A stretch of 24,000 nucleotides of DNA. Source: Flavitalea sp. BT771 (GTDB lineage Bacteria; Bacteroidota; Bacteroidia; Chitinophagales; Chitinophagaceae). Numbering within the stretch: the stretch's first letter is position 1; each line of letters opens with the position of its first letter. A model generated the notes under the pieces. The model ran no database searches and was not told the DNA's origin. It was given only the letters and a program-made list of their open reading frames with translations. The DNA lies in contig NZ_JAUOTO010000003.1 in assembly GCF_030546645.1 (NCBI RefSeq), positions 254,956 to 278,955 on the forward strand. The letters run 5' to 3'. The position numbers were made by a program, and so were the translations under genes. Below, one piece after another: positions 2,622-23,098 of the stretch.

Positions 2622-3956
2622 ATGAAAACTTCTTTTCTGACTTGCTGTTTTACCTTGTTTTTTTTCGCGGGATATCTTACCGCGCAGACGCGGGCTGGTG
2701 AAGGACTCCCGCTGATGGGAAATCGATTTTTAACCCTGAATACGGTGATCCGTGTAAACCAGATCGAAGTATCGCGAGACAGGAATGTCGGGGAAGATGA
2801 ACGTAACAACCATACGCCTCAACGGGTGATCAATTTCAGAAAAGCTATTGCCAAAGGGCTCCCGGGTGCGAAGATCACCTGGGCCCTTAGCTGGCTGGCC
2901 CTGCACGATACTTCTGCCAATTACACTCAGATCAGGAAGATTGTGGCGGGTTATCATTATCAATATGGCGACGAGGTTACTTTTATCCCTGGCGCCTATT
3001 TTGCCAACGCTTATAATTCCACGGAACAGGTGAACAAAGATCTGCATGAGGGTCTGGCCAGGGTGTCGGAGATGGTGGGTAACCATTATCGTCCCTTGAG
3101 CGTCCTTGCCGGGTTCCTGTCATCGAAGAATATGGAATACCTGGCAAAAGAGGAGGGGATACATGTCTGCCAGGCGAATATATGGAGTCAGTATTCCATC
3201 GACAACCAGGACGGCGATGGTTCCGTGTGCTATCCGTTCTATCCGTCAACGGAACATTTTTGCAAGCCAGCCCAGGGAAAGGAAGATTTCATAGATTGTG
3301 TGAACCTGGACGGATGGACAGTGGATTTCCTCGCCGGGAGACGTGCCGGTTTTGCGGAAGGATTCAATAGCCGGATGGGCGTTGGCCCCATCGAAACGTT
3401 GGGAAAATACGGGCTGCAGGTCGGCCTGGAGGAAATGATGCATTCCACTGCTATACACTTTGATAATGGATACAGGCTGAACGGCTTTGCCTGGGTCACT
3501 AATTGCTGGGAGCTGACTTTGCCTTACGACGTCAATGATATGACGCTGTGGTTGCAGGCGATCAAAAAACGCTGGCCCGGTGTTCGGTGCATCACGCAGG
3601 GAGAATTCGGACGGATCTGGCGCAGGCATTATAAGCAGAATAACTTCAATTATCGGTTTGACGAAGTCGGCTCCGGTATTGGGGGGTCGGACAAGGATAA
3701 GCGGCTGCGGTGGTATATGAATAAGGATTTCCGGCTGGCTGTTTTAAGTGGGGTAGATGGGGCGAATGAAAAGGTCATCGACTTTACCCGCTATGACCTG
3801 CCTGCCAAAGAGCCGGTGTCGGGCAGCACCCGGAACTGGAGCTTAATGGGTGAGATCAATCAAAAGGGCGTCCGGCCGCAGGACAAGCCTGTTCCAGTGA
3901 AGGAACTGCCGGCTGAAGGTCAGGCGCTCATCAGGAAACACAAGATCAATTTATGA
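2622..3956 (+). CDS. Exported protein of unassigned family, PUL paralog A (Sec-type signal peptide)
   Basis: The ORF track starts at GTG 2616, but ATG 2622 gives MKTSFLTCCFTLFFFAGYLTAQ, a Sec-like signal, 2 nt after the SusD stop. The long ORF is a clear paralog of the next gene. I recognise no motif that maps to a named enzyme family. Confidence 0.8.
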   Translation: MKTSFLTCCFTLFFFAGYLTAQTRAGEGLPLMGNRFLTLNTVIRVNQIEVSRDRNVGEDERNNHTPQRVINFRKAIAKGLPGAKITWALSWLALHDTSANYTQIRKIVAGYHYQYGDEVTFIPGAYFANAYNSTEQVNKDLHEGLARVSEMVGNHYRPLSVLAGFLSSKNMEYLAKEEGIHVCQANIWSQYSIDNQDGDGSVCYPFYPSTEHFCKPAQGKEDFIDCVNLDGWTVDFLAGRRAGFAEGFNSRMGVGPIETLGKYGLQVGLEEMMHSTAIHFDNGYRLNGFAWVTNCWELTLPYDVNDMTLWLQAIKKRWPGVRCITQGEFGRIWRRHYKQNNFNYRFDEVGSGIGGSDKDKRLRWYMNKDFRLAVLSGVDGANEKVIDFTRYDLPAKEPVSGSTRNWSLMGEINQKGVRPQDKPVPVKELPAEGQALIRKHKINL

Positions 3957-5374
3957 GACGACGTTCTTTTATAAAGAATACCGCATTGTCGGGCGCGGGA
4001 TTGTTAGCCGGCGACGGGTTGCTGAATGCAATGCCTGCAGCTTTTCTGACGCCGGGACCTGCACCGTTGTCCCTGATCGGGGGACGATTTGTTACATTAT
4101 GCATCATGATCCGGACCACACCCTGGGAGGTGTCGCGGGATGTGAAATTGCATCCGCGCGATGAGGCCAACTGGCATACATTGCAAGGCGTGCGCGCCAT
4201 GCGGGAGGCATTTGCTACAAACAATCCCGACGGACGGCTGACCTGGGGCTTTACTTTGAATGCGCTGGAAGACAAGCGGAAAAACTTCGCCGAAATAAGG
4301 GATTATGCGGCCGCCTGCCAGGCAAAATATGGAGACGAGGTGACAGTGTTCCCCGGTTATTTCCCCGCCATGTATCTTCCACGGGAAAGGATCAATAAAG
4401 AGCTGTCGGAAGCGATCCGGATCATTTCCGGGTTTGTCGGTAAAGGCTATCGTCCTCAATCCATCATTGGCGGATTCCTGCCCGCGGAGAGCCTGCAATA
4501 CCTGGCGGAGAAAGAAGATATTCATGTGGCGCAGGCTGTCATCTGGAGCCAGCATAACATCGATGGGGGAGGAGCGGACGGCTCGCCTTCCTATCCTTAT
4601 TATCCATCGACTGAGCATTTTTGCAAGCCCGGCCAGGGTAAAAAAGACCTCATAGATTGTGTAAATCTCGATGGCTGGACCCTGGATTTCATCTGTGCGC
4701 GACAAAGCGGCTCCAACGAGCACGAGATCACGGGATATAACAGCCGGCGTGGCGTAGGGCCCATCGAAACGTATAAAGGATGGGGCCTTGAACTGGGTAA
4801 TATGGAAGTGATGCATACCCAGTCGATCCATTTTGACAAGGGATTCGAGCTGAATAAATTCGGTTGGGTCACCAATATATGGGAAGCGCAGCTGGTGTAT
4901 GAGTTTGGGATGGATTTTATCTGCAACGCGCTGAGGATGTGGGTCACGGACACGATGAAACGATGGCCCGATACCCATTTCGTTAGCTTTGGCGAGTTCG
5001 GGAATATCTGGCGCGCGCATTATAAGACCAATGACGAGTGGAATTACCGGTTTGTGGAAAGGGGATGCGGGCTGGGCGATTCGTACAACAATCTGGAGAT
5101 AAGGTGGTTCCAGAACAAGGAGTTCAGACTTGCCCTATTGCGTGATTGGCATAAGGATACGCCTGAGAAGGTGATAGATTTTACGAGGTACGATCTCTCT
5201 GCGCATGAGCCGGCGGGAGCGAGCCCCCAAAAGCCGATCAAGGACTGGAGCTTGATCAATCGGATCAATCAAAAAGGATTACGGCCGCAGGACAAGCCCG
5301 TTCTGCTACGGGAATTGCAGGATGATGAGCGACAGCTGATATTCAAATATTATCCTGAGCTGAATAAATCCTGA
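3953..5374 (+). CDS. Exported protein of unassigned family, PUL paralog B (twin-arginine signal)
   Basis: 473 aa. Its start overlaps the paralog A stop (ATGA at 3953-3956). The N-terminus MRRRSFIKNTALSGAGLLAG matches the Tat consensus (RR.F.K). It shares long motif blocks with paralog A, for example YP.YPSTEHFCKP.QGK.D.IDCVNLDGWT.DF and EKVIDFTRYDL. Confidence 0.8.
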   Translation: MRRRSFIKNTALSGAGLLAGDGLLNAMPAAFLTPGPAPLSLIGGRFVTLCIMIRTTPWEVSRDVKLHPRDEANWHTLQGVRAMREAFATNNPDGRLTWGFTLNALEDKRKNFAEIRDYAAACQAKYGDEVTVFPGYFPAMYLPRERINKELSEAIRIISGFVGKGYRPQSIIGGFLPAESLQYLAEKEDIHVAQAVIWSQHNIDGGGADGSPSYPYYPSTEHFCKPGQGKKDLIDCVNLDGWTLDFICARQSGSNEHEITGYNSRRGVGPIETYKGWGLELGNMEVMHTQSIHFDKGFELNKFGWVTNIWEAQLVYEFGMDFICNALRMWVTDTMKRWPDTHFVSFGEFGNIWRAHYKTNDEWNYRFVERGCGLGDSYNNLEIRWFQNKEFRLALLRDWHKDTPEKVIDFTRYDLSAHEPAGASPQKPIKDWSLINRINQKGLRPQDKPVLLRELQDDERQLIFKYYPELNKS

Positions 5375-5413: not shown

Positions 5414-7228
5414 ATGAATGAACGTCAACGTAAAACGGTACTATCCCTACTATTCCTCACGATCAATTGTTCTTGTTTGCTGGCCCAGGAGGCTGTCCTT
5501 CCTACCCCGTGGACGAAATCGGCGCTGGCTGCCAACGTCCCTTTACCCGAATATCCAAGGCCTCAGTTACAACGCAGCGACTGGATGTGCCTGAATGGCA
5601 AATGGGATTATCAGGGAGGAAAAGAAGTTGCGGGCGCGCTCGATCCGGTAAATCCGATTGCTTTTAAAAGCGGCGCTGAACAAATACTTGTTCCATATTG
5701 TCCGGAATCAGTGTTATCCGGCATCCGCCGTACACAGGAGATCAATATGTGGTACCGCCGACGTTTTATAATCCCTGCCGGCTGGAAAAACAAGCAGGTC
5801 ATTATTCACTTTGAAGCCGTGGCTCATCACGCCACTTTATTTGTGAACGGACATAAAGCAGGTGCCCATGCCGGGAGCTATGATGCATTCAGCTTTGACA
5901 TCACCCAGTACTTAATAAATGGGGAGAATACATTGGTAGTGGCAGCTCGAGATCTGAACGATGGCCGCGTACCTTCAGGAAAGAGCGGCCCCCGGGGTGA
6001 CTATACCTATTGTTCCGGCATATGGCAAACTGTGTGGCTGGAGCCTGTTAACAAAAATCATATCGAGAATATCCGTTTGCTGCCTGATCTGGCAAACAGC
6101 CGATTGAGAATACTGGTAACATCGCCGGGGCCAGGAAAGGTCAATGCGAATGCTTTTGATGGAGACAAGGTAGTTTCGGGAGCGGAATCATCCAGCGGCA
6201 CTTACTTTTACCTCCCCATTAAAACGCCGAAACCCTGGTCGCCGGATGATCCCTTTTTATATGATCTGACGATCAGATTGCAAGATGCCAATGGAAGTGT
6301 CACCGATGAAGTAAAAAGCTATTTCGGCATGCGCGATATTAAATTAGGCAGGGTTAACGGAGTTACCAGGCCTTTGATCAATGGCAAATTCATCCTGCAG
6401 CTTGGTCTGCTAGACCAGGGTTATTGGCCGGACGGGATCCTGACGGCCCCGACAGAGGAGGCGCTGAAATTTGATCTGCAATTTACCAAGAACGCCGGGT
6501 ACAATCTCATCAGGAAGCATATGAAAACAGAGCCTCAGCGGTTTTATTATTGGGCTGATAAATTGGGATTATTAGTTTGGCAGGATATGCCGGCCATATG
6601 GTATCAGGATGAGGATACCGCCAGAACAAGGACGGAATACAGGAAAGAGCTAAAAGAACTGATCGACGGACATTATAACGCGCCATCCATTATCACCTGG
6701 GTGCCTTTTAATGAAAATTGGGGTGCTTTTGATGTTAAAAATATCACAGACTGGGTCAAGCAATACGATCCGTCGAGACTTGTTAACGGCAATTCAGGGT
6801 TTAATAACAATCCTCCCTACCAAAAAGCATACGGTGACCCTGGAAACGGGGACTATGTGGACACACATATTTATGTGGGACCGGTTGGTGCTTCCGTGCC
6901 GGAAGAGCGCCGTGCGGCATCATTAGGCGAATTTGGCGGCGTGGGCCTGTTTGTGCGGGATCATATGTGGCCCATAGAAAACAACGCCTATGACTATGAG
7001 CCAACCAAAGCAAGGCTAACAGACAGGTACGTTTTTTTACTGGACCAGGTGGAACAGCTGATGAGATACAAGGGGCTGAGCGTGGCCATTTATACCCAAA
7101 CAACCGACGTGGAGCATGAAATAAATGGAGTGCTCACCTATGACAGAGTTATTGAAAAAATGGAAATGGAAAGGGTTAGAGCTGTCAATGAAGCCGTCAT
7201 TAAGGCAAGTTATAACCTGATGCCTTAA
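5414..7228 (+). CDS. Glycoside hydrolase family 2 enzyme (about 600 aa, secreted)
   Basis: The likely start is ATG 5414 (MNERQRKTVLSLLFLTINCSCLLAQ, a signal peptide); the track ORF starts at TTG 5405. It has the GH2-type N-terminal block LPEYPRPQLQRSDWMCLNGKWDY and the TIM-barrel acid/base region NAPSIITWVPFNENWG. Confidence 0.8.
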   Translation: MNERQRKTVLSLLFLTINCSCLLAQEAVLPTPWTKSALAANVPLPEYPRPQLQRSDWMCLNGKWDYQGGKEVAGALDPVNPIAFKSGAEQILVPYCPESVLSGIRRTQEINMWYRRRFIIPAGWKNKQVIIHFEAVAHHATLFVNGHKAGAHAGSYDAFSFDITQYLINGENTLVVAARDLNDGRVPSGKSGPRGDYTYCSGIWQTVWLEPVNKNHIENIRLLPDLANSRLRILVTSPGPGKVNANAFDGDKVVSGAESSSGTYFYLPIKTPKPWSPDDPFLYDLTIRLQDANGSVTDEVKSYFGMRDIKLGRVNGVTRPLINGKFILQLGLLDQGYWPDGILTAPTEEALKFDLQFTKNAGYNLIRKHMKTEPQRFYYWADKLGLLVWQDMPAIWYQDEDTARTRTEYRKELKELIDGHYNAPSIITWVPFNENWGAFDVKNITDWVKQYDPSRLVNGNSGFNNNPPYQKAYGDPGNGDYVDTHIYVGPVGASVPEERRAASLGEFGGVGLFVRDHMWPIENNAYDYEPTKARLTDRYVFLLDQVEQLMRYKGLSVAIYTQTTDVEHEINGVLTYDRVIEKMEMERVRAVNEAVIKASYNLMP

Positions 7229-7236
7229 TTGCGATA

Positions 7237-9111
7237 TTATTGAATATATTCCTTTTTTATTCCAAGTTTTTTCATTTTTGATTTCAAAGTTGAAGGATTG
7301 ATATTCAGTATTTCGGCAGCGGCGCCCGGCCCCCATATTCTTCCATTACATTTCTTCAATACCGAGATGATATGATCCCTCTCATTTTCTGCGATAGATT
7401 TCATGGAAGTGCCTTCAAGGACAGAAACTCCATCTTTTTTTTCAACTGTTGGCAGCAGTATTTCTTCGATAACCATCCCTTTGGTAAGCAACACACTTCT
7501 TTCAATTAAATGTTCGAGTTCACGAATGTTGCCGGGCCAGTTGTAAGCCATCATTTTCGTGAGAACACTTTCTGATATTCCACTAATCTTCTTTCCGGCT
7601 TTATGGTTGTAGTGATCCATAAAATGATAGGCCAGGGCAGGAATATCCTCCTTGCGGTCACGTAAGGCTGGCAGGGTTATCGGAAAAACATTCAAACGGT
7701 AGTACAGGTCCAGCCGAAAACGTCCGTCAGCAACTTCTTTTTCCAGGTTTTTATTAGTAGCCGCGATGATGCGGACATCAAGTTTTATGGTATTTCTTCC
7801 ACCTATTCTTTCTATTTCTTTCTCCTGTAGCACCCTTAATAATTTCACTTGCAATTCAACTGGCATTTCTCCAACCTCATCCAAAAAGAGTGTTCCCGTG
7901 TCGGCTCTTTCAAATTTGCCAATTCTTTTATCCTGCGCTCCGGTGAAAGCGCCCTTTTCGTGGCCGAATAGTTCGGATTCAATCAATGTAGCAGGCAATG
8001 CTGCACAGTTCACTTTAATAAATGGTTTTCCTTTTCGGGATGACAGGTTATGTATGCAGTCAGCGATCTTTTCTTTGCCGGTGCCACTTTCTCCCAGTAT
8101 AAGAACAGAAGTGTCTGAAGACGCCACCTGGGAGATATGATCAAATACATTTAACAAAAGATGGCTCTTACCAATGATCCCTTCAAATCCCTCTTCGGCA
8201 GTTGCGTGTTCAGCTGGTTTAGTTTCAGGATGGGAAGATCTGTTATTTGCACTCATTTCTCCCTGCAATATACTATCCATGCTGCGAATCAATGAAAATT
8301 GCAGTCGTTCGAATAAGTCAACTTGTTCTGCAGTATACGCTTCCGGCCTTCTGCTATATAAACCGAAACTAAAAGATCTGTCATTCAAAATGCTCGTTGG
8401 TATTTTAAAATATGATTTTAGCTGGAAAGTGTTGGTGAATAATGCTATTAAAGAGGGGGATTGCAGCGCAGTAAGCTCTTCTATTGACTTTCCTGTAATG
8501 ATGGAGAGCTCATGCAGTCCGATCATTTGATATTCATCAAACCCGGTTCTCAAAAGACTTATGCCTTTAAAAAATCCAGGCCCTAAGTTGTCAAGCCCGG
8601 TGTCGAGGAAATCGAATGGAATCAATGTCTGAAGGGCTGAAGCTATTCTTAATAATTTTTGCGCCTGTGTTCCGGTGTCGCTTGTGATGTTTTTTAAGAG
8701 TTCATGAAAGTCAGCTTCTCTGCGGTACCTGCTTTCGACGCTATGTGCGTGTCGATATTTGGCAATTTCAAGTGCCACGAGCAAATCCTTCTCCCTGAAA
8801 GGTTTTACAAGAAAACCATAGGGTTGTGTTTGCTTTGCAGCATTCAAAACATCTTCATTTGAATTGGCTGACAGGTACACGAACGGAATATTATCAGCAA
8901 CCAGCAGCCTTGCCAGGTCAATTCCCGTTTGTTTCCCCTTTAAGAAAATATCTACAAGAACAAAATCCGGCCTTTCGTTCTTTATCATGTCCTGGGCCTG
9001 GGGAACCGACCGTGCAATACCTGTGATACTGTATCCCGCCTGCTCAAGCAGCAGTCGCAAATAATCTGCTTCAACATACTGGTCCTCTACTATGAGAATT
9101 TGTTCTTTCAT
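7237..9111 (-). CDS. Sigma54-dependent response regulator (REC, GAF-like middle domain, AAA+ sigma54-interaction domain, Fis-type HTH)
   Basis: The REC N-terminus (ILIVEDQYVEA...PDFVLVDIFL) is followed by Walker A GESGTGKE, the sigma54-contact motif ESELFGHEKGAFTGA, Walker B TLFLDEVGE and a C-terminal HTH (AAEILNINPSTLKSKMKKLGI). The roughly 180-aa middle region is called GAF-like by inference only. Confidence 0.9.
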   Translation of the reverse strand: MKEQILIVEDQYVEADYLRLLLEQAGYSITGIARSVPQAQDMIKNERPDFVLVDIFLKGKQTGIDLARLLVADNIPFVYLSANSNEDVLNAAKQTQPYGFLVKPFREKDLLVALEIAKYRHAHSVESRYRREADFHELLKNITSDTGTQAQKLLRIASALQTLIPFDFLDTGLDNLGPGFFKGISLLRTGFDEYQMIGLHELSIITGKSIEELTALQSPSLIALFTNTFQLKSYFKIPTSILNDRSFSFGLYSRRPEAYTAEQVDLFERLQFSLIRSMDSILQGEMSANNRSSHPETKPAEHATAEEGFEGIIGKSHLLLNVFDHISQVASSDTSVLILGESGTGKEKIADCIHNLSSRKGKPFIKVNCAALPATLIESELFGHEKGAFTGAQDKRIGKFERADTGTLFLDEVGEMPVELQVKLLRVLQEKEIERIGGRNTIKLDVRIIAATNKNLEKEVADGRFRLDLYYRLNVFPITLPALRDRKEDIPALAYHFMDHYNHKAGKKISGISESVLTKMMAYNWPGNIRELEHLIERSVLLTKGMVIEEILLPTVEKKDGVSVLEGTSMKSIAENERDHIISVLKKCNGRIWGPGAAAEILNINPSTLKSKMKKLGIKKEYIQ

Positions 9112-9147: not shown

Positions 9148-11391
9148 TTAACAAGTTCCACTATCACATATAAAATCAACCATGATTTCGGTGCCATCAT
9201 GACTTTTTATTTGAAATTTCGCATCAATGTCGCCACTAAGCCCATGCATCAGCTTCATTCCCATAGAAGGCTGTTTTTTACTGTCGAATGCTGGGGGCAG
9301 GCCAACCCCATTGTCTTTGATAGAAAGCAGGAAATGATTTGGCAAGGTCCTTTTTAATGAAATATCAATGGCTCCTTCTTTTTTATCGGGAAAAGCGTGC
9401 TTAAGAGAGTTGGTAATGGCTTCATTCAATATTAGTCCAAGCGGAACGCAATGCGAAACATCTAATTTTACCGGATCAACCTGTAAATTGAATTGAATCT
9501 TATGACCAGTGTGAAAACTATCTTTCAGGCAATCTACCAATTCATGAATGTAGTCTGTCATATTGATGGCAGATAGATTGTCTGATTGATATAGTCGCTG
9601 ATGAACCAAAGACATTGCCTGTATGCGTTGCTGGCTTTCAGTAACTGCCTGTATTGCCTCTTCACCTTGCAGGTATTCTGATTGTGTGCGCAGCAATGCC
9701 ATTACTGTATGGAAATTATTTTTTACCCGGTGGTGGATTTCCCTGACTAGCCATTCTTTCTCCTCTACCAAATGTTGCAGTGAATTATTTTTCTTCTCAA
9801 TTTGCTTTTGCTGAACATGCAGCTTTCTATTTGTTCGCTGTTTTAAAAGTGAATAATTGATAAGCAAACCAACTATAATAATAAGCAGAATGGCGACACC
9901 AAGGATCCAGCTCCTGGTGTTTTGCACTTGTGTTAACTCGGTTTGTTGAAGACGCCTCTCTTTCTCCAGTAGCCTGATGCTTTGCTCTTTTTTTTCTGTT
10001 TCATATTGTATGGTCAATTCTTCAATCTGCCTGCTTTTTCTCTCGTTAAAAATCGAATCATTTAGAAACTGATATTGTTGCAGGTCTTTGATAGCGGCGG
10101 ATGAATTCCCCAACGCGGAGTCGGCAGTGAACAGCATTTGAAATAAATCTCTTTGATTTAACAAACGGCCGTATGAAATATATGCTAGCGCGGTATCCAG
10201 ATAGATATGTGCTTTCTTAAATTGCCGGTGCTGCAAATAAAACCTTCCAATATCCATGTGGGTGATAGAGATGATCTCGTTTTCAGGGGGGGCATCCTTG
10301 TAATATGCGGCCACGGCCAAAAAATATTTTTCGGCTTCCGGGTACTGGTTCAGTCCATCAAAACAATATGCATAGTTTTGCGCAACGATTGCCTTTTCAA
10401 ATGGCTCTTGAGGTGGATAGGCCGCAACCAGGCTATCAACCAAAGCAAGGGCGCTTCCACACTTCCGTAGTTTTATCAATTGGCGGATGAGAAAACCTGC
10501 AGTTCTGAGGATGAATACCCGGTTTACTCTTTGTTCCATCCTTTTTTCAAGAGTTTTTCGATACCATTGACTGCTTTCTTCGGCGCGCCCCAGTTCGTCG
10601 TAAACCAGGGCAAGCTCCCCATAATACGTATCGGTACGTACAATGTCTTTGTTGCGCTCCACATTTTCAACGCATTTTACTGCGTATAAAAGTGATTTTT
10701 CATAGGACCCGCGGTACCTGTTGATAGCAGAAAGAAGAAAATAGGCGTTGAAAAGCCTGGTACTCCCTTTCTGGTGAAGTAAGTCCAATGCCTGTAGCAA
10801 TTCTTTTTCCGCCAAATTGGATCTCCCTGATTTAAATAGATAGTCAGCCAGATGTGTTCGGGCCTCTGCTTCTTTCTCGATGTTTCGGGCCTGTTTGTAT
10901 AATGTAATCGCCTTATTAAAAAAAGTATCAATGCCGGCAAAGGAATTTAGTTGCTTATTCATTCTCTGGGCTAACCGCAGCCATGTGCCGGCTTCCTCCT
11001 GAACGTCGCCCATTGTATGATAAAGGGATGCTACCTCAGAAAATATTTTTTTGCCTTCAGCCGTATCACCTCTGGCAAGATAGGCTTCCCCCACAAGCGA
11101 CATGCTTTCATACCTGAATTGTTTTAATTGAAGGGTATCGCTTAGCCTGATGGCATGATTAAAAATGTCAATGGCGGTGTCCCTCAAATACATCTTTTTA
11201 TCGCCGAACATCATCTGTTTAAGGTAAGTCCTGCCCAATTCGTCCAGAATTGAGATGCGGTTGCTATCCTGCTTGCTTTCCTGCAGCAGCAGCAGCAATT
11301 GACCCCGAGGCCTGGGGGATAACTGTTGCCCCGAACCTGGCACAACAGTTATTATCAAAAAGAATAAATATGTAATGGACTTTAGCATCAT
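9148..11391 (-). CDS. Sensor histidine kinase with a large TPR-like N-terminal region, one internal TM segment and a HisKA_2-type kinase core
   Basis: The H-box REIHHRVKNNFHTVMALL is HisKA_2-like. The N-box is LNEAITNSLKHAF and the G-box is DNGVGLP. The TM segment is WILGVAILLIIIVGLLINYSLL, and TPR-like helical repeats lie upstream. The track ORF starts at TTG 11418; ATG 11391 (MMLKSITYLFFLIITVVPGSG) is the more likely start. The stop lies 36 nt before the regulator start. Confidence 0.85.
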   Translation of the reverse strand: MMLKSITYLFFLIITVVPGSGQQLSPRPRGQLLLLLQESKQDSNRISILDELGRTYLKQMMFGDKKMYLRDTAIDIFNHAIRLSDTLQLKQFRYESMSLVGEAYLARGDTAEGKKIFSEVASLYHTMGDVQEEAGTWLRLAQRMNKQLNSFAGIDTFFNKAITLYKQARNIEKEAEARTHLADYLFKSGRSNLAEKELLQALDLLHQKGSTRLFNAYFLLSAINRYRGSYEKSLLYAVKCVENVERNKDIVRTDTYYGELALVYDELGRAEESSQWYRKTLEKRMEQRVNRVFILRTAGFLIRQLIKLRKCGSALALVDSLVAAYPPQEPFEKAIVAQNYAYCFDGLNQYPEAEKYFLAVAAYYKDAPPENEIISITHMDIGRFYLQHRQFKKAHIYLDTALAYISYGRLLNQRDLFQMLFTADSALGNSSAAIKDLQQYQFLNDSIFNERKSRQIEELTIQYETEKKEQSIRLLEKERRLQQTELTQVQNTRSWILGVAILLIIIVGLLINYSLLKQRTNRKLHVQQKQIEKKNNSLQHLVEEKEWLVREIHHRVKNNFHTVMALLRTQSEYLQGEEAIQAVTESQQRIQAMSLVHQRLYQSDNLSAINMTDYIHELVDCLKDSFHTGHKIQFNLQVDPVKLDVSHCVPLGLILNEAITNSLKHAFPDKKEGAIDISLKRTLPNHFLLSIKDNGVGLPPAFDSKKQPSMGMKLMHGLSGDIDAKFQIKSHDGTEIMVDFICDSGTC

Positions 11392-11504
11392 ATACTGGTA
11401 AGGAATACATAAAACCAAACCACTTTTCAGAGGGGTTCGCTTGATGCGTAAATTAGTTTCTTTACAACAGAAAAAAATGGATTCTTTAAAGTTAAAAATA
11501 ATAA

Positions 11505-11643: not shown

Positions 11644-12429
11644 ATGGGAAAAAGTCAGTCAAAGACAGTTGTGTTTATCACCGGCGCGTTTGTTCATCAT
11701 AGTTGCTGGGATGAATGGAAGACCTATTTTGAAAGTAAGGGTTACCAAACAGTGGCGCCTCCGTGGCCGCATAAAAACGCTTCGGCCGAGACATTGCGTA
11801 ATAGCCATCCCAACAACGAAATTGCATCCAACCGGCTGCCGGCATTAACTGATTACTATGATAATATTGTGAGGCAACTTCCTGAAAAGCCGATATTGAT
11901 TGGGCATTCTATCGGCGGGCTGATCGTTCAACTCTTATTGCAAAGAGGATTGGGCTTTTCAGGGGTTGCCATTCACCCGGTACCGCCGCAGGGAATAATT
12001 ACTTTCAAATTTTCTTTTTTGAAAGCAGGCTGGGGACCTCTTGGTTTTTTTACTTCGGTAAGAAAATCATTCCTTATGTCTTTCAGCCAATGGAAATATG
12101 CCTTTACAAATGGGATGGATTGCGATGCTCAAAAAGAAGCGTATTACAAATTTGCCATACCCGAGTCAAAGCTAATTGTAAGGGATACAATAACCAGCGC
12201 TGCTAAAGTACACTTCGAAAATCCTCATGCCCCGTTGCTATTGACTTCCGGCAGTGATGATCATACGATACCCCCCTCGTTGAATTACGCAAATTATAAA
12301 AAATATAAGAAAAGCAATTCGGTTACCGATTATAAAGAATTCAAAGGCAGGAATCATTTTGTCTTAGGCCAGCAAACCTGGAAAGAAGACGCCGATTATA
12401 TATTGGACTGGATTCGCAACCTGCCGTAA
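11644..12429 (+). CDS. Alpha/beta hydrolase (Ser nucleophile, no signal peptide)
   Basis: 261 aa. The nucleophile elbow is GHSIGG, with later SGSDDHTIP (Asp) and GRNHF (His) in the canonical Ser-Asp-His order. The N-terminus VVFITGAFVHHSCW is typical of small esterase-like alpha/beta hydrolases. Confidence 0.8.
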   Translation: MGKSQSKTVVFITGAFVHHSCWDEWKTYFESKGYQTVAPPWPHKNASAETLRNSHPNNEIASNRLPALTDYYDNIVRQLPEKPILIGHSIGGLIVQLLLQRGLGFSGVAIHPVPPQGIITFKFSFLKAGWGPLGFFTSVRKSFLMSFSQWKYAFTNGMDCDAQKEAYYKFAIPESKLIVRDTITSAAKVHFENPHAPLLLTSGSDDHTIPPSLNYANYKKYKKSNSVTDYKEFKGRNHFVLGQQTWKEDADYILDWIRNLP

Positions 12430-12496
12430 TGGTACCGCGGCTGTATTCTGGTCATTAACATTAAACTTCACCATAAATTTCAAAACAATTCTGATC

Positions 12497-13480
12497 ATGA
12501 AAAAACTGATACTGGGACTTTTTGTTGCAAGCTTTTTACTGGCAGCCTGCAACAATGAACCAAAAGACGCAAGTCCGGCGGCAGAGACCAAGGCGGACTC
12601 AGCCCACAACGTTTCGACCACTCAGCCGGCATCCCCCCCGCCAAATTTTAAACATGCCAGTGCGAAAATAAACGGTATAGATGTTCACTATGTGATCGGC
12701 GGATCGGGCGAACCGCTTGTCTTATTGCATGGCTTTGGTCAGAACTGGTATATGTGGAACCGCCTGCTGCCTGAGTTCTCCAAACATTTTACGGTGATAG
12801 CCCCTGACCTTCCGGGTCTTGGAGAGTCAGGCAAGCCGGATAGCGGCTATGATAAAAAGACGCTGGCTGCCTACATACATGGGCTTGTAAAACAACTGGG
12901 ATACGACCACATAAATCTGGCTGGCCATGATATTGGCCTGATGGTCGCCTATGCCTATGCAGCTCAATTTTCAGCCGAGGTAAAAAAACTGGCGTTGATG
13001 GATGCATTGCTTCCGGGCATTGAGCCGGTGTGGAGCCAGGTTAAATCCTCTGCCTGGTGGTTTGGTTTCTTTTCCTTTCCGGCATCCGGAGAATTGGTAG
13101 CCGGGAGAGAGCGTTTATTTCTTACCAACTTCTGGCCGGTGGTTGGCCGCGTAAAAGACCCGTTCACACCCGAAGAGGTCAATGAGTTCGTAAGGGCTTA
13201 TTCAGTAAAAGGGGCCACAGCAGGTACTTTTCACTGGTTTGGCGCTTTTGAGCAGGATGCAAAGGATAACAAAACGTTTATGAAAAACAAATTGAAAATG
13301 CCTTTGCTGGCAATGGGAGGTGAGTATTTCGGCGCCGGTTTTTTGGTGGATCACTGCAAATTGGTTGCAGAGAATGTGAAAGGCTCCAATATCAAAGGTT
13401 CAGGACATTGGGTCGTACAAGAGAATACATCACAGGTGCAAAAAGATCTACTCGATTTTTTCCTGGACAAAAAAAATTAA
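12497..13480 (+). CDS. Alpha/beta hydrolase, epoxide-hydrolase/dehalogenase-like (Asp nucleophile), lipoprotein
   Basis: The lipobox is LLAAC near the N-terminus. Motifs are LLHGFGQNWYMWNRL...APDLPGLGES, the nucleophile elbow GHDIG (Asp rather than Ser) and a C-terminal GSGHWVVQE histidine. Confidence 0.75.
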   Translation: MKKLILGLFVASFLLAACNNEPKDASPAAETKADSAHNVSTTQPASPPPNFKHASAKINGIDVHYVIGGSGEPLVLLHGFGQNWYMWNRLLPEFSKHFTVIAPDLPGLGESGKPDSGYDKKTLAAYIHGLVKQLGYDHINLAGHDIGLMVAYAYAAQFSAEVKKLALMDALLPGIEPVWSQVKSSAWWFGFFSFPASGELVAGRERLFLTNFWPVVGRVKDPFTPEEVNEFVRAYSVKGATAGTFHWFGAFEQDAKDNKTFMKNKLKMPLLAMGGEYFGAGFLVDHCKLVAENVKGSNIKGSGHWVVQENTSQVQKDLLDFFLDKKN

Positions 13481-13495
13481 CATATACCTAATAAA

Positions 13496-14272
13496 ATGAA
13501 GTTTATGAAAAAGCTTATTTATTCTTCTTTAATATTTTTTTCACTCTTAAATATTTCGGTTATGTCATACGCACAAACTGTGACGGGCATCAAAAATATC
13601 GTGATTGTTCACGGGGCTTTTGCCGACGGATCCGGCTGGCAAGGCGTATATGAAATACTTACAAAAAGAGGTTACCAGGTCACTATTGTCCAAAATCCTT
13701 TAACCTCCTTAAATGATGACGTTGCTGCTACCAACAGAATACTTGATAAACAGGATGGTCCAGTGGTGTTGGTTGGGCACTCCTGGGGCGGATCGGTAAT
13801 AACGCAAGCGGGCGTTCATTCCAAAGTGGCAGCGCTGGTGTATGTAGCTGCTTTTGTCCCGGACGTAAACGAAACCACATTTGATCTTATCAAGACTGCC
13901 CCGCCTGCCCCGGAGAACGGTATTCTTCCGCCAGATGAAAAGGGATTTGTGTATTATGACAAACAAAAGTTTCATGCGGGTTTTGCTGCTGACCTTCCTA
14001 AAGAAAAAGCAGATTTTATGTTTGCTTCCCAGGGGCCTATTGCCGCTCAATCGTTTGTTACCCCATTGACCCAGGCAGCCTGGAAAACCAGGCCGTCTTA
14101 TGCTATTGTCTCAGCTGAGGATAAAAGCATTAATCCTGATATTTTGCGATTCATGTACAAAAGAGCGGGTGCAAAAATTACGGAGTTGCATGGTAGTCAT
14201 GCTATTTTTATTTCGAAGGCTAAAGAGGTGGCCGACATAATTGAAATTGCCGCAAAAGGCACAAAATCCTGA
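13496..14272 (+). CDS. Alpha/beta hydrolase (Ser nucleophile), secreted
   Basis: Signal peptide MKFMKKLIYSSLIFFSLLNISVMSYAQ. Motifs are IVIVHGAFADGSGW, the elbow GHSWGG, VSAEDKSINP and a late GSHAIF. Confidence 0.8.
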   Translation: MKFMKKLIYSSLIFFSLLNISVMSYAQTVTGIKNIVIVHGAFADGSGWQGVYEILTKRGYQVTIVQNPLTSLNDDVAATNRILDKQDGPVVLVGHSWGGSVITQAGVHSKVAALVYVAAFVPDVNETTFDLIKTAPPAPENGILPPDEKGFVYYDKQKFHAGFAADLPKEKADFMFASQGPIAAQSFVTPLTQAAWKTRPSYAIVSAEDKSINPDILRFMYKRAGAKITELHGSHAIFISKAKEVADIIEIAAKGTKS

Positions 14273-14281
14273 GACTTTCTT

Positions 14282-14968
14282 TCACCGCACCTTTTCATCA
14301 CGCCGGCATGCCTTTAGCGCTTTTTGCATTTGAAAGAGCCCGGTTCCAAGAAGGGCGATCCCCACCAGCCAGTTAAAAATATTTTGATTCGCACGCAGGG
14401 AATAGATCAGCAAATGTCCTGCGGTCCCATAGACCATGAAGGCAAAGGAAGTACCGGCGCCAATGGCGATCACATAAGCATTGTAATCCCCCCTCGTGTC
14501 GGAGAGCAGTCCCTTTGCTTTCAGTACCGCCGTCCATCCCATCCAGAAGGGAAGGTGTAATGGATTGAGCAAGCTCAACACCAGGCCCGACACAAAAGGT
14601 GCGTGTCCTGCAAAGGGAACGACCATCGCCGCCTTTCGCATATGCCAGGCAGCTTCCAGGCTAATGAATGCAACCAGCAGTATGACGATTCCGGCCAGTA
14701 CGCGGAACCATTTTACGAGATGGGTCATGCCCGCCAGGCGTTTTACAGTGACCAACGCTATACGGACCATGCTTACTTCTATGAGGATGGCTCCCAGGCC
14801 AAAAAGGATAGCTCCCCCGACATCGCCATTGATCACCAGATCGGTGACGCCCACATTAAGGGTGCCTACCGGTAAAGAACCGGTAAAGCTGATTAAAAAG
14901 GCATATGCAGACAGCCTGAAAGGCTTTCCGGCCGGTGGGGCGGCGGATAGATATGGGACATCGTTCAT
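14282..14968 (-). CDS. LysE/RhtB-type small-molecule exporter (polytopic membrane protein)
   Basis: 228 aa with about six hydrophobic segments and an LLNPLHLPFWMGW block resembling the LysE-family NP motif. Its start overlaps the upstream gene's stop (ATGA). Confidence 0.55.
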   Translation of the reverse strand: MNDVPYLSAAPPAGKPFRLSAYAFLISFTGSLPVGTLNVGVTDLVINGDVGGAILFGLGAILIEVSMVRIALVTVKRLAGMTHLVKWFRVLAGIVILLVAFISLEAAWHMRKAAMVVPFAGHAPFVSGLVLSLLNPLHLPFWMGWTAVLKAKGLLSDTRGDYNAYVIAIGAGTSFAFMVYGTAGHLLIYSLRANQNIFNWLVGIALLGTGLFQMQKALKACRRDEKVR

Positions 14969-16731
14969 GTGATGAGCTTTTCGTAGCGGTTGTAATCTCT
15001 CAACATCTTCAGCCCTTCGAATGTACTCATCTGAGCAAGCCCCTTCTTCCGGGCGTTGGCCCGGCTGATGTCATATAACAATCGCCAGTGCCGGAAGATC
15101 TCTTTCCAGGCGAAGAATAGGGAATGCCGGGGATCATACATATGCGTTGGCTCACTGCCCGCACCATTTAGCTCGATGACGGAGAACTTTCGGCCTTCGC
15201 ATAGTTCTTCCCAGCTTTCGAATTTAACATCCAGCCTGCCAAAGTAAAATCCCGGGATCTGGCGGCAAAGCTCGTCGATCCGCTCTTCCAGGGCAGGGGT
15301 GATCCTGTCACTCCAGTCCAGGAATTTTGCCCCCCGGCTGTGGTTCCCATAGGGCACCAGCAGGCGCTCCTCTCCAGGCGAAGGTATCTGCTGAAGAAAG
15401 TCGCCATAGACGGCCCGCAACGCCGGCAACTGCAACACATGACGGTCATTTTTTCGCAGCAGCGCCTCCACCGTCGATACCCCGTCACCTGTTATGGTCA
15501 GCATCTCTTTGCCTACGATGCCGGAAATACGCCCTTTAGGCTCTCCGGGATATCGATAATAGAAGATCCCGGCTTCCTGGGGATAATCGATATATTCCTG
15601 CAGCAGGAAATCCACTTTGCTCCGGGCGCTGTATACGTACAGGTCACATTCATCCCGGAGCAGGCTCACCTGCATGCCCCGCTGCCCGATGTCCGGCTTG
15701 GCGATGAGCGGAAAATCCAATCCCTGTTCCGCCAGGGTTCGGCGGATCCCGATCACGGGCCGGCGCTTGGGACAATAGACAGTTTTGGGATAGGAGCCTT
15801 CCGGCATCAGGTCGTAGATCTGTTGCTTGGACTCCATCAGGAACCCGGCGTTGGTGATAGAAGGGTTCGCCGTACTAAAGAAAAAGAAGCTTCTGGCCTT
15901 GCAGCTCAGCCAGGCCCAATAAAGAAACGCCGGCGCGTAAATGACGGCAAATGGCCAGTATTCCCAGGATGTCAGCCGGATGCGGGTCCGCCGCAGGAAA
16001 CCCGCACGGCTTACTTTATTATTGGCGACGCTTATTCCCGCCTCATATCGCCTGTCGGTCTGCAGGTCTACATAATGGATGCTGCCCGCCCCAGCTCCGA
16101 TGCGAATGGAAGTAATGCTGACGGTGGAGATCCTTCCCTGCGGGTCGATAACGAGTCCCGCCCCTGGCGCGCTCACCGCGACAGACCGGTGGAAGTCCAG
16201 GATGCTCTCCGTGTCGATGCGGGAAGCTGTTTCGTGCCATTGTCTGAACAGCTGCTGCCGGCATTTTGCGGCTTCCTCATCATATAAGGTGGCGGAAGAC
16301 CAGATATGCGGGACATTATGACCTTGAAGGACAATATGCTTTCTCCGTCCGTCCCAACGGCATTCGAACAACTGTCCCCTTGTGAAAAGCACCAGTGTAA
16401 AGGGTTCGATCCCTTCCAATGCTTCGGCTCTGAAGGCTTGCACCGGGTCGGTTGCGCGGACGATCTCCAGGAAAACAATACCCCGGCTCCGCCGGTAGGC
16501 CATTGCCCGGTGATGTTTGACAAAAGCCCCATTCAGCAACACGCCAACATCCCCGCTGTTCTTCAGGGTAATCCAGCTGCCACCCGCCTCGCCATCTTTG
16601 GGAAAAAGCAGTTGGCTCCCGTCTGCATCAGCCTGGCAGGGGAAAACGGCGGGGGCACGTCCAGACCGTTCGTCCCGGTTGGAAGTCAGATAAATGCCGC
16701 CGGTGGTGGGTATAAAGGTTACTGTGCACAT
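14965..16731 (-). CDS. Fusion protein: N-terminal NRDE (TANGO2-like) domain, hydrophobic segment, C-terminal ATP-grasp ligase domain
   Basis: The protein starts MCTVTFIPTTGGIYLTSNRDE (Cys2 plus an NRDE motif) and contains GGSWITLKNSGDVGVLLNG. A hydrophobic stretch WEYWPFAVIYAPAFLYWAWLSC spans about aa 256-277. ATP-grasp-like blocks are PLIAKPDIGQRGMQV, LLQEYIDYPQEAGIFYY and VIELNGAGSEPTHMYDP. Confidence 0.7.
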   Translation of the reverse strand: MCTVTFIPTTGGIYLTSNRDERSGRAPAVFPCQADADGSQLLFPKDGEAGGSWITLKNSGDVGVLLNGAFVKHHRAMAYRRSRGIVFLEIVRATDPVQAFRAEALEGIEPFTLVLFTRGQLFECRWDGRRKHIVLQGHNVPHIWSSATLYDEEAAKCRQQLFRQWHETASRIDTESILDFHRSVAVSAPGAGLVIDPQGRISTVSITSIRIGAGAGSIHYVDLQTDRRYEAGISVANNKVSRAGFLRRTRIRLTSWEYWPFAVIYAPAFLYWAWLSCKARSFFFFSTANPSITNAGFLMESKQQIYDLMPEGSYPKTVYCPKRRPVIGIRRTLAEQGLDFPLIAKPDIGQRGMQVSLLRDECDLYVYSARSKVDFLLQEYIDYPQEAGIFYYRYPGEPKGRISGIVGKEMLTITGDGVSTVEALLRKNDRHVLQLPALRAVYGDFLQQIPSPGEERLLVPYGNHSRGAKFLDWSDRITPALEERIDELCRQIPGFYFGRLDVKFESWEELCEGRKFSVIELNGAGSEPTHMYDPRHSLFFAWKEIFRHWRLLYDISRANARKKGLAQMSTFEGLKMLRDYNRYEKLIT

Positions 16732-17219
16732 GTCTGTCGGAATTGTATGGTGGAAGCAGCAACGCCGAACTGCGCAGGCAATGTGATCTCGGCCACAGCG
16801 GCGATGCCGATCCGCAGCAGGGCCATGTGGTGCACCATGTGTTCGATGTTATAAAGCAATTCCCGGGAATAATTGGTGCGGATGGCAAAGGGCTCGGGAT
16901 CCCCGGGCGTAAGATGAGCTATCAGTATCAGATCTTTGTCCGGCCGGTCCACCGCAAGTGCTGTCGCCGACAGCTGGCGGATGGCGTGCGACAGGCTTAT
17001 TTCCAGCAGATGGCTCCGGCTGCGCCGGTCATAATTGACGGTGCCGCTGTCATATCCTTTATCCAGTTCCTGAAAGAATTCAAGGATGTGCCGGACATGC
17101 TGTCCGATGGTCGCCGTTGATAGCAGGTCGATAGGAGCAGTGTATTGATGGTCCGTGAGGGGCTCCAGTGCTTCCTGCAATTGCCGGAGTAGCTGCTGGA
17201 TGGGGTATTTTAAATGCAT
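16719..17219 (-). CDS. DinB-family (DinB_2-like) four-helix-bundle metalloprotein
   Basis: 166 aa. His-containing blocks GQHVRHILEF and IEHMVHHMALL are arranged as in the DinB/YfiT-like His triad. Its 3' end overlaps the start of the fusion gene by 13 nt. Confidence 0.6.
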   Translation of the reverse strand: MHLKYPIQQLLRQLQEALEPLTDHQYTAPIDLLSTATIGQHVRHILEFFQELDKGYDSGTVNYDRRSRSHLLEISLSHAIRQLSATALAVDRPDKDLILIAHLTPGDPEPFAIRTNYSRELLYNIEHMVHHMALLRIGIAAVAEITLPAQFGVAASTIQFRQTCAQ

Positions 17220-17234
17220 AACAAGGTTTTTTGT

Positions 17235-18139
17235 TTATTTTTTTGCGTTTTCTAATTTTGCCACCTCCGGTAAAGACATTAATACGGCTTTGATCTCAGC
17301 GAAATGCGCCCAGGGGATAAAATGATTGGCGCCCCGAAGAATGGTGGCCGTAATTTTCCGGGCGTGAATGAGCTTGTTTTTCAAGAAATCGACATTACTC
17401 ACCGGCACCAACGGATCCTTATCGCCATGCACGATCCAGACGGGACACGTGATCTTCTCCAATTCGGGCTCCATCTTTTTTGGTCGGATTTTAAATACCA
17501 GAGTTCTTCATTGGCGGGGCGCATGGCGCCGGGAACCCAGTAATTGAGGGGCGTTCTAAAGAGCAGGGGCCGCCATTTTTCCGGATCTTCCAGGTAGGGC
17601 GAAACCGAAGCTGCCAGCAACACCAGTCCCGAGAATACGCCCGGATAATCCATAGCCAGCCTGATCACCAGGGGACCTCCCATGGAATGTCCTACGGCAT
17701 AAATGGGCTTCCCATTTTTTATTTGCTGTAAAGCCGGACCTATCAATCCGGATTGTCCTTCCAGATCCCTGGCCTTCCCAAAACTGCTGAAACCGAAGCC
17801 CGGTCGGTCTATGGATACCATCCGGAATTTCTCCAGCAGGTCTTTATCCTGCATGTACTGTTCAAATGCGTTCCAGCTGCCCGGCGAGCCGTGCACAAAA
17901 AGAAGGGTAGGACACGTGTCCTTCCCTGTTTGGACATAATGCATGGCATACCCTTCCACCCGGTAAGTATGGATGAATAGTGACACGCCCTTCTGCCCAA
18001 AGCTTCGCTGTGCAGCAGGATCCTCCGTCCTGAATTTCAGGGCAAACTGCGCGAAAACCAGCCAAGCTACCGGAATAATTAACAGCAGTGTTAACATCGT
18101 CCTACCTTTTGATTTTCGCTTGTTCATGATATCCTGCAA
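17235..18139 (-). pseudogene. Alpha/beta hydrolase interrupted by a single-nucleotide frameshift in an A6 (T6 on the plus strand) run
   Basis: ORF 17399-18139 carries an N-terminal TM anchor, HGSPGSW and the elbow GHSMGG. ORF 17235-17474 carries the C-terminal CPVWIVHGDKDPLVP and GANHFIPW (Asp and His). The two join as ...LKSDQKKMEPELEKITCPVW if one more A is added to the run at 17476-17481. The total length of 905 nt is one short of in-frame. Confidence 0.75.
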
Positions 18140-21928: not shown

Positions 21929-23098
21929 TTAATGCTTAATGAGATACCCAAAAACACCGTCTGTTTCACTGGCAGGACCTGCTGAGAAGTACAGCCTGCC
22001 TGGATCGGTGGTGCCTGCAGGGGGGAAGGACAGCGACCACAGTCCTTCGATCACGATCGGCTGTTTGTGTGATTGAAGCTGACCGAGATAGTCTCCATTG
22101 GGGGTAAATACGTTGATGTGTCCATCTCCAAAATTGCCAACCAGGATCACTGGAGATTTGCGGTCGAGGGCGCCGTTCTGGCTAGCAGTGAGGTTACCGT
22201 AGCCGCCATGTCCTTCACCCCTATTATCTACATCTTTATCTTCAAGGAAGGAGGCCGGCGCCATTGTCACGCCCCAGGGAGCGTTCAGGGTGCCACGGCT
22301 TGCCAATCTCTTTACGAATTGTCCATCGGTCAGGAATATGCTTACAAAACCAAAACCTGCGCCGGCCACGGGATGCCCGTCCGATCCCAATTTGGCGTAG
22401 ACGACGTAGATCGAATCACCGATGGCCTGGACGTTATAAGGAGAGTAGTCCTGTGGCAACGTGGGGTCCCGGAAGGCCAAACCGTCTGGCTTAAACGCCG
22501 TATCCCACGCGTCGATCCTCTTCAGTTCAAAATTAGCGCCATATACAAAATTACGTCCGTTAAAGGTGCCGATAGTCAAACCGGTATAGCTGCTGCTGGA
22601 GGGGTGATGGATAAATTTGGCATTGTTGCCGGAAGCCGCATTCCAGGCTGACAGTACGCCATCAAAGCCGGTGAAAGCGAACAGGGAAGCTCCACCGCCA
22701 TTCGGCAGTTTGAAGCCTTTGCCCGCGGTGAAGACGACGCCGCAGGGAAATCCCTGCGCGGAATCCGCTATATTATTGGAGGAAGGGATATTCACGGCCT
22801 TTACTTTTACACCTTCCACGCTATAGAGCTCACTGACATGACCACCTACGGAGTTCACCCAGGCAGTGCCGCTCGAAGACCAGGCGACGCCAAAGCCATT
22901 GATGAGGGTAGGGTCCAGCGGCTGGACGGGATGATATTTTGCTTTGTTGGCTACAAGGTTGATCACATCGAAATCCCGCAGGGGCTTATCATCGACATGA
23001 CCTTTTCGACAGCTAAAAGACAGTATTGCAGCCGTTGCCATTAACAGAGAGCTCGCACCAGATCTCCATCCTACAGCCGTTAATTTTTTCGTGTACAT
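21929..23098 (-). CDS. TIGR03118-like beta-propeller protein, lipoprotein
   Basis: 389 aa with lipobox LSFSC. Blocks I recall from the TIGR03118 family are DPTLINGFGVAWSS, YSPYNVQAIGDSIYVVYAK, LNAPWGVTMAP, LVGNFGDGHINVF, GLWSLSF and LYFSAGPASETDGVFGYL. Confidence 0.7.
   Translation of the reverse strand: MYTKKLTAVGWRSGASSLLMATAAILSFSCRKGHVDDKPLRDFDVINLVANKAKYHPVQPLDPTLINGFGVAWSSSGTAWVNSVGGHVSELYSVEGVKVKAVNIPSSNNIADSAQGFPCGVVFTAGKGFKLPNGGGASLFAFTGFDGVLSAWNAASGNNAKFIHHPSSSSYTGLTIGTFNGRNFVYGANFELKRIDAWDTAFKPDGLAFRDPTLPQDYSPYNVQAIGDSIYVVYAKLGSDGHPVAGAGFGFVSIFLTDGQFVKRLASRGTLNAPWGVTMAPASFLEDKDVDNRGEGHGGYGNLTASQNGALDRKSPVILVGNFGDGHINVFTPNGDYLGQLQSHKQPIVIEGLWSLSFPPAGTTDPGRLYFSAGPASETDGVFGYLIKH

Follow-up and report, generated by a model that had tools for sequence, protein, structure and literature searches.

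Tandem DUF3863/DUF3864 paralogs encoded beside a galactofuranosidase-type GH2 gene in a Flavitalea polysaccharide utilization locus are candidate glycoside hydrolases

The protein domains DUF3863 (PF12979) and DUF3864 (PF12980) are defined by a structural-genomics structure, PDB entry 3LM3 (BDI_3119 of Parabacteroides distasonis), which was deposited under the title "putative glycoside hydrolase/deacetylase" and to which the depositors gave no function. Enzymes acting on galactofuranose (Galf) have been described in glycoside hydrolase (GH) family 2, where group III, made up of subfamilies GH2_18 and GH2_19, is a group of furanosidases (PMC12243196). ORF1110 of Streptomyces sp. JHA19 is a Galf-specific beta-D-galactofuranosidase that degrades Aspergillus galactomannan (PMC11627007). 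A further family, GH182, was unrecognised before 2023; it comprises exo-beta-D-galactofuranosidases and was founded on BACFIN_04787 from a galactan polysaccharide utilization locus (PUL) of Bacteroides finegoldii. Here we analyze 24,000 nucleotides (nt) from Flavitalea sp. BT771 (positions 254,956 to 278,955 of contig NZ_JAUOTO010000003.1; this whole stretch is called the window), in which two tandem genes for DUF3863/DUF3864 proteins, A and B, lie between a SusC/SusD pair and a GH2 gene. With slightly better than even confidence, we propose that A and B act in the periplasm as glycoside hydrolases of a family not yet characterised, are co-translated with an exo-beta-D-galactofuranosidase, and share with it the breakdown of oligosaccharides imported from a Galf-bearing microbial glycan.

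Both proteins carry the two domains in N-to-C order, with bit scores of 338.8 and 64.4 for A and 666.7 and 136.7 for B, compared with a Pfam gathering cut-off of 27 for each model. A preliminary description, made from the DNA letters alone, had taken the pair for an unassigned exported family. That label has to be dropped, because the family is catalogued and has a crystal structure. B aligns with 3LM3 over its whole mature length (E = 5.5e-254, about 78 to 80% identity). A has the same two-domain architecture but represents a separate paralogous lineage, 49% identical to B. Searches of the PDB by phmmer and by profile returned 3LM3 as the sole solved sequence relative, and a search of NCBIfam returned no model covering the family. 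The expectation that no characterised enzyme family would match by sequence was borne out in profile searches of Pfam, NCBIfam, and the PDB, which yielded only the DUF models and 3LM3; matches to 3C proteases (E of about 0.02) were set aside as chance. Public names add little: the Flavitalea sp. BT771 database entry that is 100% identical to A is called only "DUF3863 domain-containing protein," and homologs of A and B bear either that name or "hypothetical protein." A look-up of the exact sequences of A and B returned no record. Judged by the matches, the two genes are fresh members of a catalogued but uncharacterised family.

The family is widespread, with relatives of A and B encoded in at least 599 species genomes and 431 representatives, mostly fragments, after clustering of DUF3863 proteins at 50%. 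A-type proteins are 70 to 90% identical across Chitinophagaceae, Prolixibacteraceae, and Flavobacteriaceae. B-type proteins are 70 to 92% identical across Bacteroidota and about 70% identical in Acidobacteriaceae (Terriglobus, Acidicapsa, Granulicella), a degree of similarity that suggests lateral transfer between phyla together with strong constraint. Distant relatives are fused to F5/8-type-C (CBM32-like) or ricin-B modules, some of them binding modules of the galactose type, or to GH63-like, Amidohydro_2, or thioredoxin-like domains.

The genes of the PUL all lie on the forward strand. A SusC-like TonB-dependent transporter gene, which starts outside the window and whose product ends in FGVNVNF, occupies positions 2 to 919 and, in clustering, groups with complete SusC genes from related loci. 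It is followed at 931 to 2619 by a gene for a SusD-like lipoprotein (Pfam SusD_RagB, E = 1e-49; SusD-like_3, E = 1.9e-26). ORF A (2622 to 3956; 444 amino acids [aa] plus stop; PF12979, E = 3.9e-101; PF12980, E = 1.2e-17) consists of a Sec-type signal peptide at about residues 1 to 21, a DUF3863 barrel at residues 30 to 366 (nt 2709 to 3719), and DUF3864 at residues 381 to 440 (nt 3762 to 3941). ORF B (3953 to 5374; 473 aa plus stop; PF12979, E = 7.6e-201; PF12980, E = 3.3e-40) has a twin-arginine signal at about residues 1 to 29 (nt 3953 to 4039), a DUF3863 barrel at residues 40 to 386 (nt 4070 to 5110), and DUF3864 at residues 392 to 470 (nt 5126 to 5362). The GH2 gene, at 5414 to 7228, encodes 604 aa with a signal peptide.

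This arrangement agrees with what had been described for the locus before, from the two open reading frames (ORFs) between SusD and GH2 to the spacing of the genes. The SusD stop at 2619 is followed by a 2-nt gap, the stop of A and the start of B share an ATGA at 3953 to 3956, which points to translational coupling, and the GH2 start codon comes after a further 39 nt downstream of the B stop. With gaps of 2, -4, and 39 nt downstream of neighboring SusC and SusD genes in the same orientation, A and B belong to the SusC/SusD operon, and the locus has the layout of a PUL, in which SusC/SusD adjoin enzyme genes on one strand. A search for internal promoters and terminators along the gene run revealed no convincing interruption. 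The proposed paralogy, with roughly half of the residues identical, was recovered by BLASTP (49% identity over 433 aa, E = 6e-143). At the DNA level, the block at 3234 to 3329 matches that at 4595 to 4690 in 75 of 96 positions, when random in-frame 96-nt pairs from A and B match at 25 positions on average and 63 at most. The duplication had been called old, with both copies maintained, and each copy indeed has its own orthologous lineage, 70 to 90% identical across genera.

Export signals were likewise as first described, with one change in what they imply. B begins with MRRRSFIK and scores 17.4 bits against the TIGR01409 twin-arginine model (curated cut-off, 16.7), so export by the twin-arginine translocation (Tat) system is predicted; the N terminus of A has no TIGR01409 match, consistent with a Sec-type signal. 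A lipoprotein reading of A was rejected, as its cysteines at residues 8 and 9 are too near the N terminus and there is no lipobox. Across the family, A-type proteins have Sec signals, and 49 of the 79 B-type orthologs show an M-x-RR-x-F-[VI]-K motif. In the Bacteroidales, the clade of 3LM3 among them, the orthologs carry Sec-type signals despite 70 to 80% identity. The idea that the Tat signal of B reflects export in a folded or cofactor-loaded state therefore loses most of its force, because close orthologs in one order are exported unfolded and no His or Cys is conserved. By their signals, A, B, and the GH2 protein all look periplasmic, and this version of the PUL has no gene for a surface enzyme.

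The neighboring GH2 narrows the likely substrate of the operon, as it is of the GH2_18 galactofuranosidase type. Its best solved relative is ORF1110 (PDB 9J6N/9J6M; E = 1.5e-159, 49% identity), all eight of whose active-site residues are kept (K212, Y228, H401, N463, E464, E530, Y551, and E594). In ORF1110, E464 and E530 are catalytic, while K212, Y228, Y551, and E594 engage the O5/O6 diol and distinguish Galf from arabinofuranose (PMC11627007). The window enzyme differs in lacking the C-terminal CBM42 of ORF1110 and in being encoded in a Bacteroidota PUL. We thus predict that it is a GH2_18 beta-D-galactofuranosidase. The comparison concerns the neighboring gene only, since A and B are unrelated to GH2. 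The downstream GH2 partner of the preliminary description is therefore present and can be assigned more narrowly than to GH2 in general.

To survey gene neighborhoods, we collected 80 species loci centered on B-type genes and 80 metagenome loci centered on A-like genes, called and clustered ORFs, and annotated the cluster representatives; counts refer to the 79 B-centered loci with a called gene. Homologs were strongly enriched beside SusC/SusD and beside one specific GH2 subfamily. SusD was encoded within three genes of the B-type gene in 33 of the 79 loci, accompanied by a FecR anti-sigma factor in 25 and by both FecR and an extracytoplasmic function (ECF) sigma factor in 17. A GH2_18 ortholog lay within three genes in 15 loci. 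When a GH2 gene directly adjoined a DUF3863 gene, it was a 55 to 89% ortholog of the GH2 in the window (16 loci), and other GH2 types were almost never adjacent. With one or few such genes per genome of several thousand genes, we estimate, without a computed statistic, that this adjacency is far above chance. At least two paralogs of the superfamily occurred in 28 loci, both A and B in 18, and a third branch, X560, in 14. The recurring unit reads ECF sigma factor, anti-sigma factor, SusC, SusD, some combination of A, X560, and B, and GH2_18, with two or three DUF3863-type paralogs. Its hosts are soil Chitinophagaceae and Sphingobacteriaceae as well as gut and insect-gut Dysgonomonas, Parabacteroides, Tannerellaceae, and Prevotella. 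In the closest locus, L008 (B 93% identical), the ECF-sigma/anti-sigma pair stands upstream of the operon, and the smallest PUL version, in Parabacteroides faecis, comprises only SusC/SusD and two paralogs.

Mannosidases are another recurring partner. A GH92 alpha-mannosidase gene lies directly beside B in L051, L083, L085, and L086, often with a GDPD phosphodiesterase gene next, and in L101 an A-like gene is preceded by four genes for GH38 alpha-mannosidases. GH78-like and GH106 genes, both of rhamnosidase type, and other 6-hairpin genes also recur. The four loci with a GH92 gene at most three genes away all lacked a second paralog, and at least two paralogs were found in 12 of the 15 GH2_18 loci, which hints that paralogs and mannosidases cover overlapping tasks.

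X560 is a family of about 560 aa that is absent from the window and about 90 residues longer than DUF3863 proteins. It comprises more than 5,500 clusters at 90% identity, and sequence searches with it against Pfam and the PDB gave no match. Comparison by hhalign related it to DUF3863 with a probability of 96% (E = 2e-9, 297 columns), and the two families have in common Q200, D204, D245, E272, E311, and R392 (B numbering). In many gut and soil PULs, the X560 gene is placed between SusD and the B-type gene (e.g., L031, 8319 to 10004; L089, 10001 to 11683; and L088, 8806 to 10488). Most members carry a lipoprotein signal, which suggests a location at the cell surface, so that in other versions of the PUL the part of the surface enzyme may be filled by an X560 lipoprotein. 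In L089, a human-gut PUL, X560 and B are followed at 13111 to 17221 by two tail-to-tail GH2 genes, one GH2_18-like (ORF1110-like) and one GH2_19-like (near 7XYR of Bacteroides thetaiotaomicron). We ruled out that a gut X560 locus is the 7SF2 locus of Bacteroides cellulosilyticus, as its two GH2 genes are ORF1110-like and 7XYR-like.

Structure prediction indicated a catalytic-type barrel for A and B rather than a binding module. An AlphaFold 2 model of B (pLDDT confidence score, 71.8) superimposed on 3LM3 with template modeling (TM) scores of 0.82 to 0.89 at 78% identity in Foldseek. Beyond 3LM3, Foldseek returned, at a probability of about 1.0, the peptidoglycan deacetylase HP0310, GH57 branching enzymes, a 4-alpha-glucanotransferase, chitin deacetylases, ArnD, the GH38 Golgi alpha-mannosidase II, and the NDST1 deacetylase domain, all at only 7 to 13% identity and with low TM scores. 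The GH57 matches, for example, had E values of 4e-6 to 5e-4 and a TM score of about 0.3 and hold at the level of fold only. The model thus predicts that DUF3863/DUF3864 proteins form a (beta/alpha)-barrel akin in fold to GH57, GH38, and carbohydrate esterase family 4 (CE4), followed by a small beta-rich C-terminal domain. What they have in common with this "glycoside hydrolase/deacetylase" superfamily is the fold class; within it they are outliers, apparently without its metal or nucleophile motifs, and they do not keep the His/Asp metal site seen in CE4 and GH38.

In place of such a site, the family conserves carboxylates. Across a 27-sequence superfamily alignment spanning A-type, B-type, distant DUF3863, and X560 proteins, the conserved polar residues are R54, Q200, D204, Y217, S219, Q228, D245, E272, E311, R392, and D409 (B numbering), of which D204, D245, E272, and E311 are invariant or nearly so (26 or 27 of 27 sequences). 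The same alignment contains no invariant His or Cys; H222 is missing from X560 and from some distant members. In B, the four carboxylates fall within positions 4562 to 4885 (D204, 4562 to 4564; D245, 4685 to 4687; E272, 4766 to 4768; E311, 4883 to 4885). Their equivalents in A are D194, D235, E258, and E297, encoded within 3201 to 3512, where the columns are invariant both in alignment A4 and in the superfamily alignment. Barrel enzymes carry catalytic residues after beta-strands, and in the model D204, D245, and E311 follow predicted strands and a predicted helix starts at E272. From this pattern we infer carboxylate catalysis of the glycosidase type. The all-carboxylate conserved core of DUF3863 and X560 goes beyond what databases hold.

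A pathway can be outlined in which each gene of the operon would have a part. SusC, SusD, A, B, and GH2 would be made from one transcript, with an ECF-sigma/anti-sigma pair upstream in the closest related loci. SusC/SusD would import oligosaccharides of a Galf-bearing microbial glycan, our best guess being a galactomannan of the fungal type or a related glycan from cell walls or exopolysaccharides. In the periplasm, reached by A through Sec and by B through Tat, the GH2_18 enzyme would take off terminal beta-D-galactofuranose, and A and B, as glycoside hydrolases, would cut two different remaining linkages by means of the candidate carboxylates D204, D245, E272, and E311. The most likely targets would be alpha-mannosidic backbone bonds or internal galactofuranosyl bonds. 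As a substrate, galactomannan with Galf side chains on alpha-1,2/alpha-1,6 mannan fits best, because of the activity of the characterised relative of the GH2, the mannosidase partners, and two paralogs that could serve one backbone linkage each. An alternating beta-1,5/beta-1,6 galactofuranan whose internal Galf bonds are cut would be just as simple an explanation. We infer the hydrolase chemistry, the substrate, and the division of labor between A and B from these features taken together.

Several results weigh against a glycosidase role for A and B. No activity is known for any DUF3863/DUF3864 member, and searches of a literature library on the two domain names, on 3LM3, and on BDI locus tags turned up no paper naming the family or describing a function. 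The model falls below a pLDDT of 50 at residues 197 to 269, exactly the most conserved stretch of B. An hhalign comparison of the DUF3863 alignment with five GH38 N-terminal domains indicated no relationship (probability, 0.8%), and membership in GH38, suggested by a fold-level Foldseek match only, was rejected. Around half of all homologs occur singly, away from PULs, with unrelated neighbors such as AraC/SDR/GH127 genes, an amino-acid permease, or penicillin-binding proteins. Partner enzymes are heterogeneous, being directed at Galf, mannose, rhamnose, fucose, or sulfate esters (sulfatase), which makes the inference of substrate soft. Finally, the best structural match of B outside its own family is a CE4-like deacetylase, HP0310 (3QBU; TM score of 0.65 on the target).

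This last match raises the possibility that A and B have CE4-like chemistry and work as de-acylases or esterases of carbohydrates, clearing imported oligosaccharides of acetyl or other acyl substituents ahead of the GH2 and other glycosidases. An insect chitin deacetylase, ArnD, and the NDST1 deacetylase domain among the other structural matches, the title of 3LM3, one relative with an Amidohydro_2 fusion, and a SASA-type esterase in one related PUL are all in keeping with it. The conserved residues speak otherwise. The Asp-His-His metal triad of CE4/NodB-type enzymes has no counterpart in A or B, which also gave no match to Pfam Polysacc_deac; no His is invariant; and the strand-1 position, which holds the metal/base motif in CE4 and GH38, reads I-R-T/V in DUF3863, with no acidic or His motif. 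Together with the missing profile link to GH38, these features argue against metal chemistry of the CE4/GH38 type and for carboxylate catalysis. Minimal PULs that consist of SusC/SusD and two paralogs, moreover, offer no glycosidase for a deacetylase to serve. We therefore regard a de-acylase role as unlikely.

A lack of known activity, the failure of the structural-genomics depositors to assign a function, and the existence of CE4-fold pseudo-enzymes (7BKF is among the Foldseek matches) would also suit non-catalytic periplasmic proteins that bind glycans, act like chaperones, or are pseudo-enzymes. Such a role is quite improbable for A and B, given that orthologs remain 70 to 90% identical across phyla and conserve the same buried-type carboxylates, Arg, and Gln residues; that relatives are fused to separate carbohydrate-binding modules, as is typical of enzymes rather than binders; and that A/B-type proteins take the positions of enzymes in minimal PULs. 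Neither copy looks like a pseudo-enzyme, because each keeps the complete set of conserved residues.

The genomic context bears on two further explanations. The first is that the DUF3863 family or its X560 branch has already been characterised under a CAZy name, with GH182 as the leading candidate, which would make A and B galactofuranosidases of a known family. As described, GH182 resembles A and B in being PUL-encoded in Bacteroidota, and it acts on Galf glycans. It was presented as a "previously unidentified" family from a Bacteroides galactan PUL with no DUF name attached, and DUF3863 and X560 genes adjoin Galf-type GH2 genes in Bacteroidales PULs. Its authors did, however, give DUF numbers for their other new families and none here, which argues against DUF3863 itself, and no protein of Bacteroides finegoldii or B. 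cellulosilyticus is among the named top matches. An identity with GH182 thus seems doubtful. The second explanation, that A and B act on a non-glycan substrate such as an amino-acid or amine conjugate and that their placement in PULs is secondary, starts from the Acidobacteriaceae, where the genes flanking the B-type gene encode a TonB-dependent-type outer-membrane barrel and an APC-family amino-acid permease, and from single relatives fused to Amidohydro_2 or to a thioredoxin-like domain. The permease is found in three to four loci only, SusC/SusD with glycosidases are the dominant contexts, and the CBM32-like and ricin-B fusions point to sugars; we consider this explanation highly improbable.

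On balance, we retain the glycoside hydrolase interpretation of A and B. The original proposal of a candidate carbohydrate-active family working with the GH2 stands in that no characterised family matched, homologs are enriched in PULs, and the fold is of a catalytic and not a purely binding type, so that nothing named beforehand as grounds for abandoning the proposal was found. It needs amending in that the family is already catalogued and its structure solved.

Some of the surveyed loci differ from the window in composition. A PUL of Confluentibacter sediminis (L092, 10001 to 21232) has ECF, FecR, SusC, and SusD genes and a single A-type DUF3863 gene, followed by SASA, GH43, two GH92, and GH125 (alpha-mannosidase) genes; it looks like an alpha-mannan-type PUL without any GH76. 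Acidobacteriaceae loci (L001, L043, L051, L053, and others) carry the B-type genes about 70% identical to those of Bacteroidota; in Terriglobus, the genes on either side encode an OMP_b-brl_4 barrel of TonB type and an APC amino-acid permease. In seven freshwater metagenome loci (L113, L114, L116, L121, L123, L124, and L139), an A-like DUF3863 gene is directly downstream of a gene for a DUF4964/DUF5127/GtaA-6-hairpin ("glutaminase A-like") protein of about 842 aa, in a conserved block that also contains DUF4197 and TonB genes.

The remainder of the window holds genes of other kinds. On the reverse strand, a sigma-54-dependent response regulator (7237 to 9111; receiver, AAA+, and Fis-type helix-turn-helix domains) and a TPR/HisKA_2 histidine kinase (9148 to 11418) converge on the 3' end of the PUL, with only 8 nt between the GH2 stop and the regulator stop. 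This pair is probably unrelated to the PUL, because related PULs use ECF-sigma/anti-sigma factors instead. Four alpha/beta-hydrolase-fold genes, three of them in tandem, lie within 7 kb (11644 to 14272 on the forward strand and 17399 to 18139 on the reverse), and between them are genes for a LysE-type exporter, a 588-aa protein with a TANGO2 domain, and a DinB-like protein. A second, unrelated GH2 gene at 18638 to 21490 (forward) encodes a beta-galactosidase-like protein of 950 aa with DUF4982 and GH2 C-terminal domain 5, only 25% identical to the GH2 of the PUL. At 21929 to 23098 (reverse) is a gene for a TIGR03118 family protein, a PEP-CTERM-associated conserved hypothetical (E = 1.6e-68).

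Mammals lack galactofuranose, which is common on the surfaces of fungi, mycobacteria, and protozoa, and enzymes for Galf glycans are for that reason wanted as diagnostic and analytical tools. To our knowledge, few families that cut such glycans have been described, and the genes for some reported endo-activities have never been identified. If A and B are in the end ordinary esterases, or fall within GH182, only their annotation will have been improved. More ambitiously, and with less than even confidence, we suggest that A-type and B-type DUF3863/DUF3864 proteins together with X560 constitute a new GH family or clan, with a GH57/GH38/CE4-like barrel and a metal-free, all-carboxylate active site, for Galf-decorated microbial glycans such as fungal galactomannan and actinobacterial galactan, possibly as an endo-galactofuranase or a novel alpha-mannanase in soil and gut Bacteroidota and in Acidobacteriota. 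The widespread and specific linkage to a galactofuranosidase, and the three paralogous lineages, one of them without a domain model, go beyond what databases record. A compact, widely recurring operon now ties a solved but function-less family to a galactofuranosidase and makes 3LM3, an orphan structure for 15 years, directly testable. It also links DUF3863 to a much larger sister family without domain-database coverage, X560, and a new GH family for Galf or mannan glycans could result.

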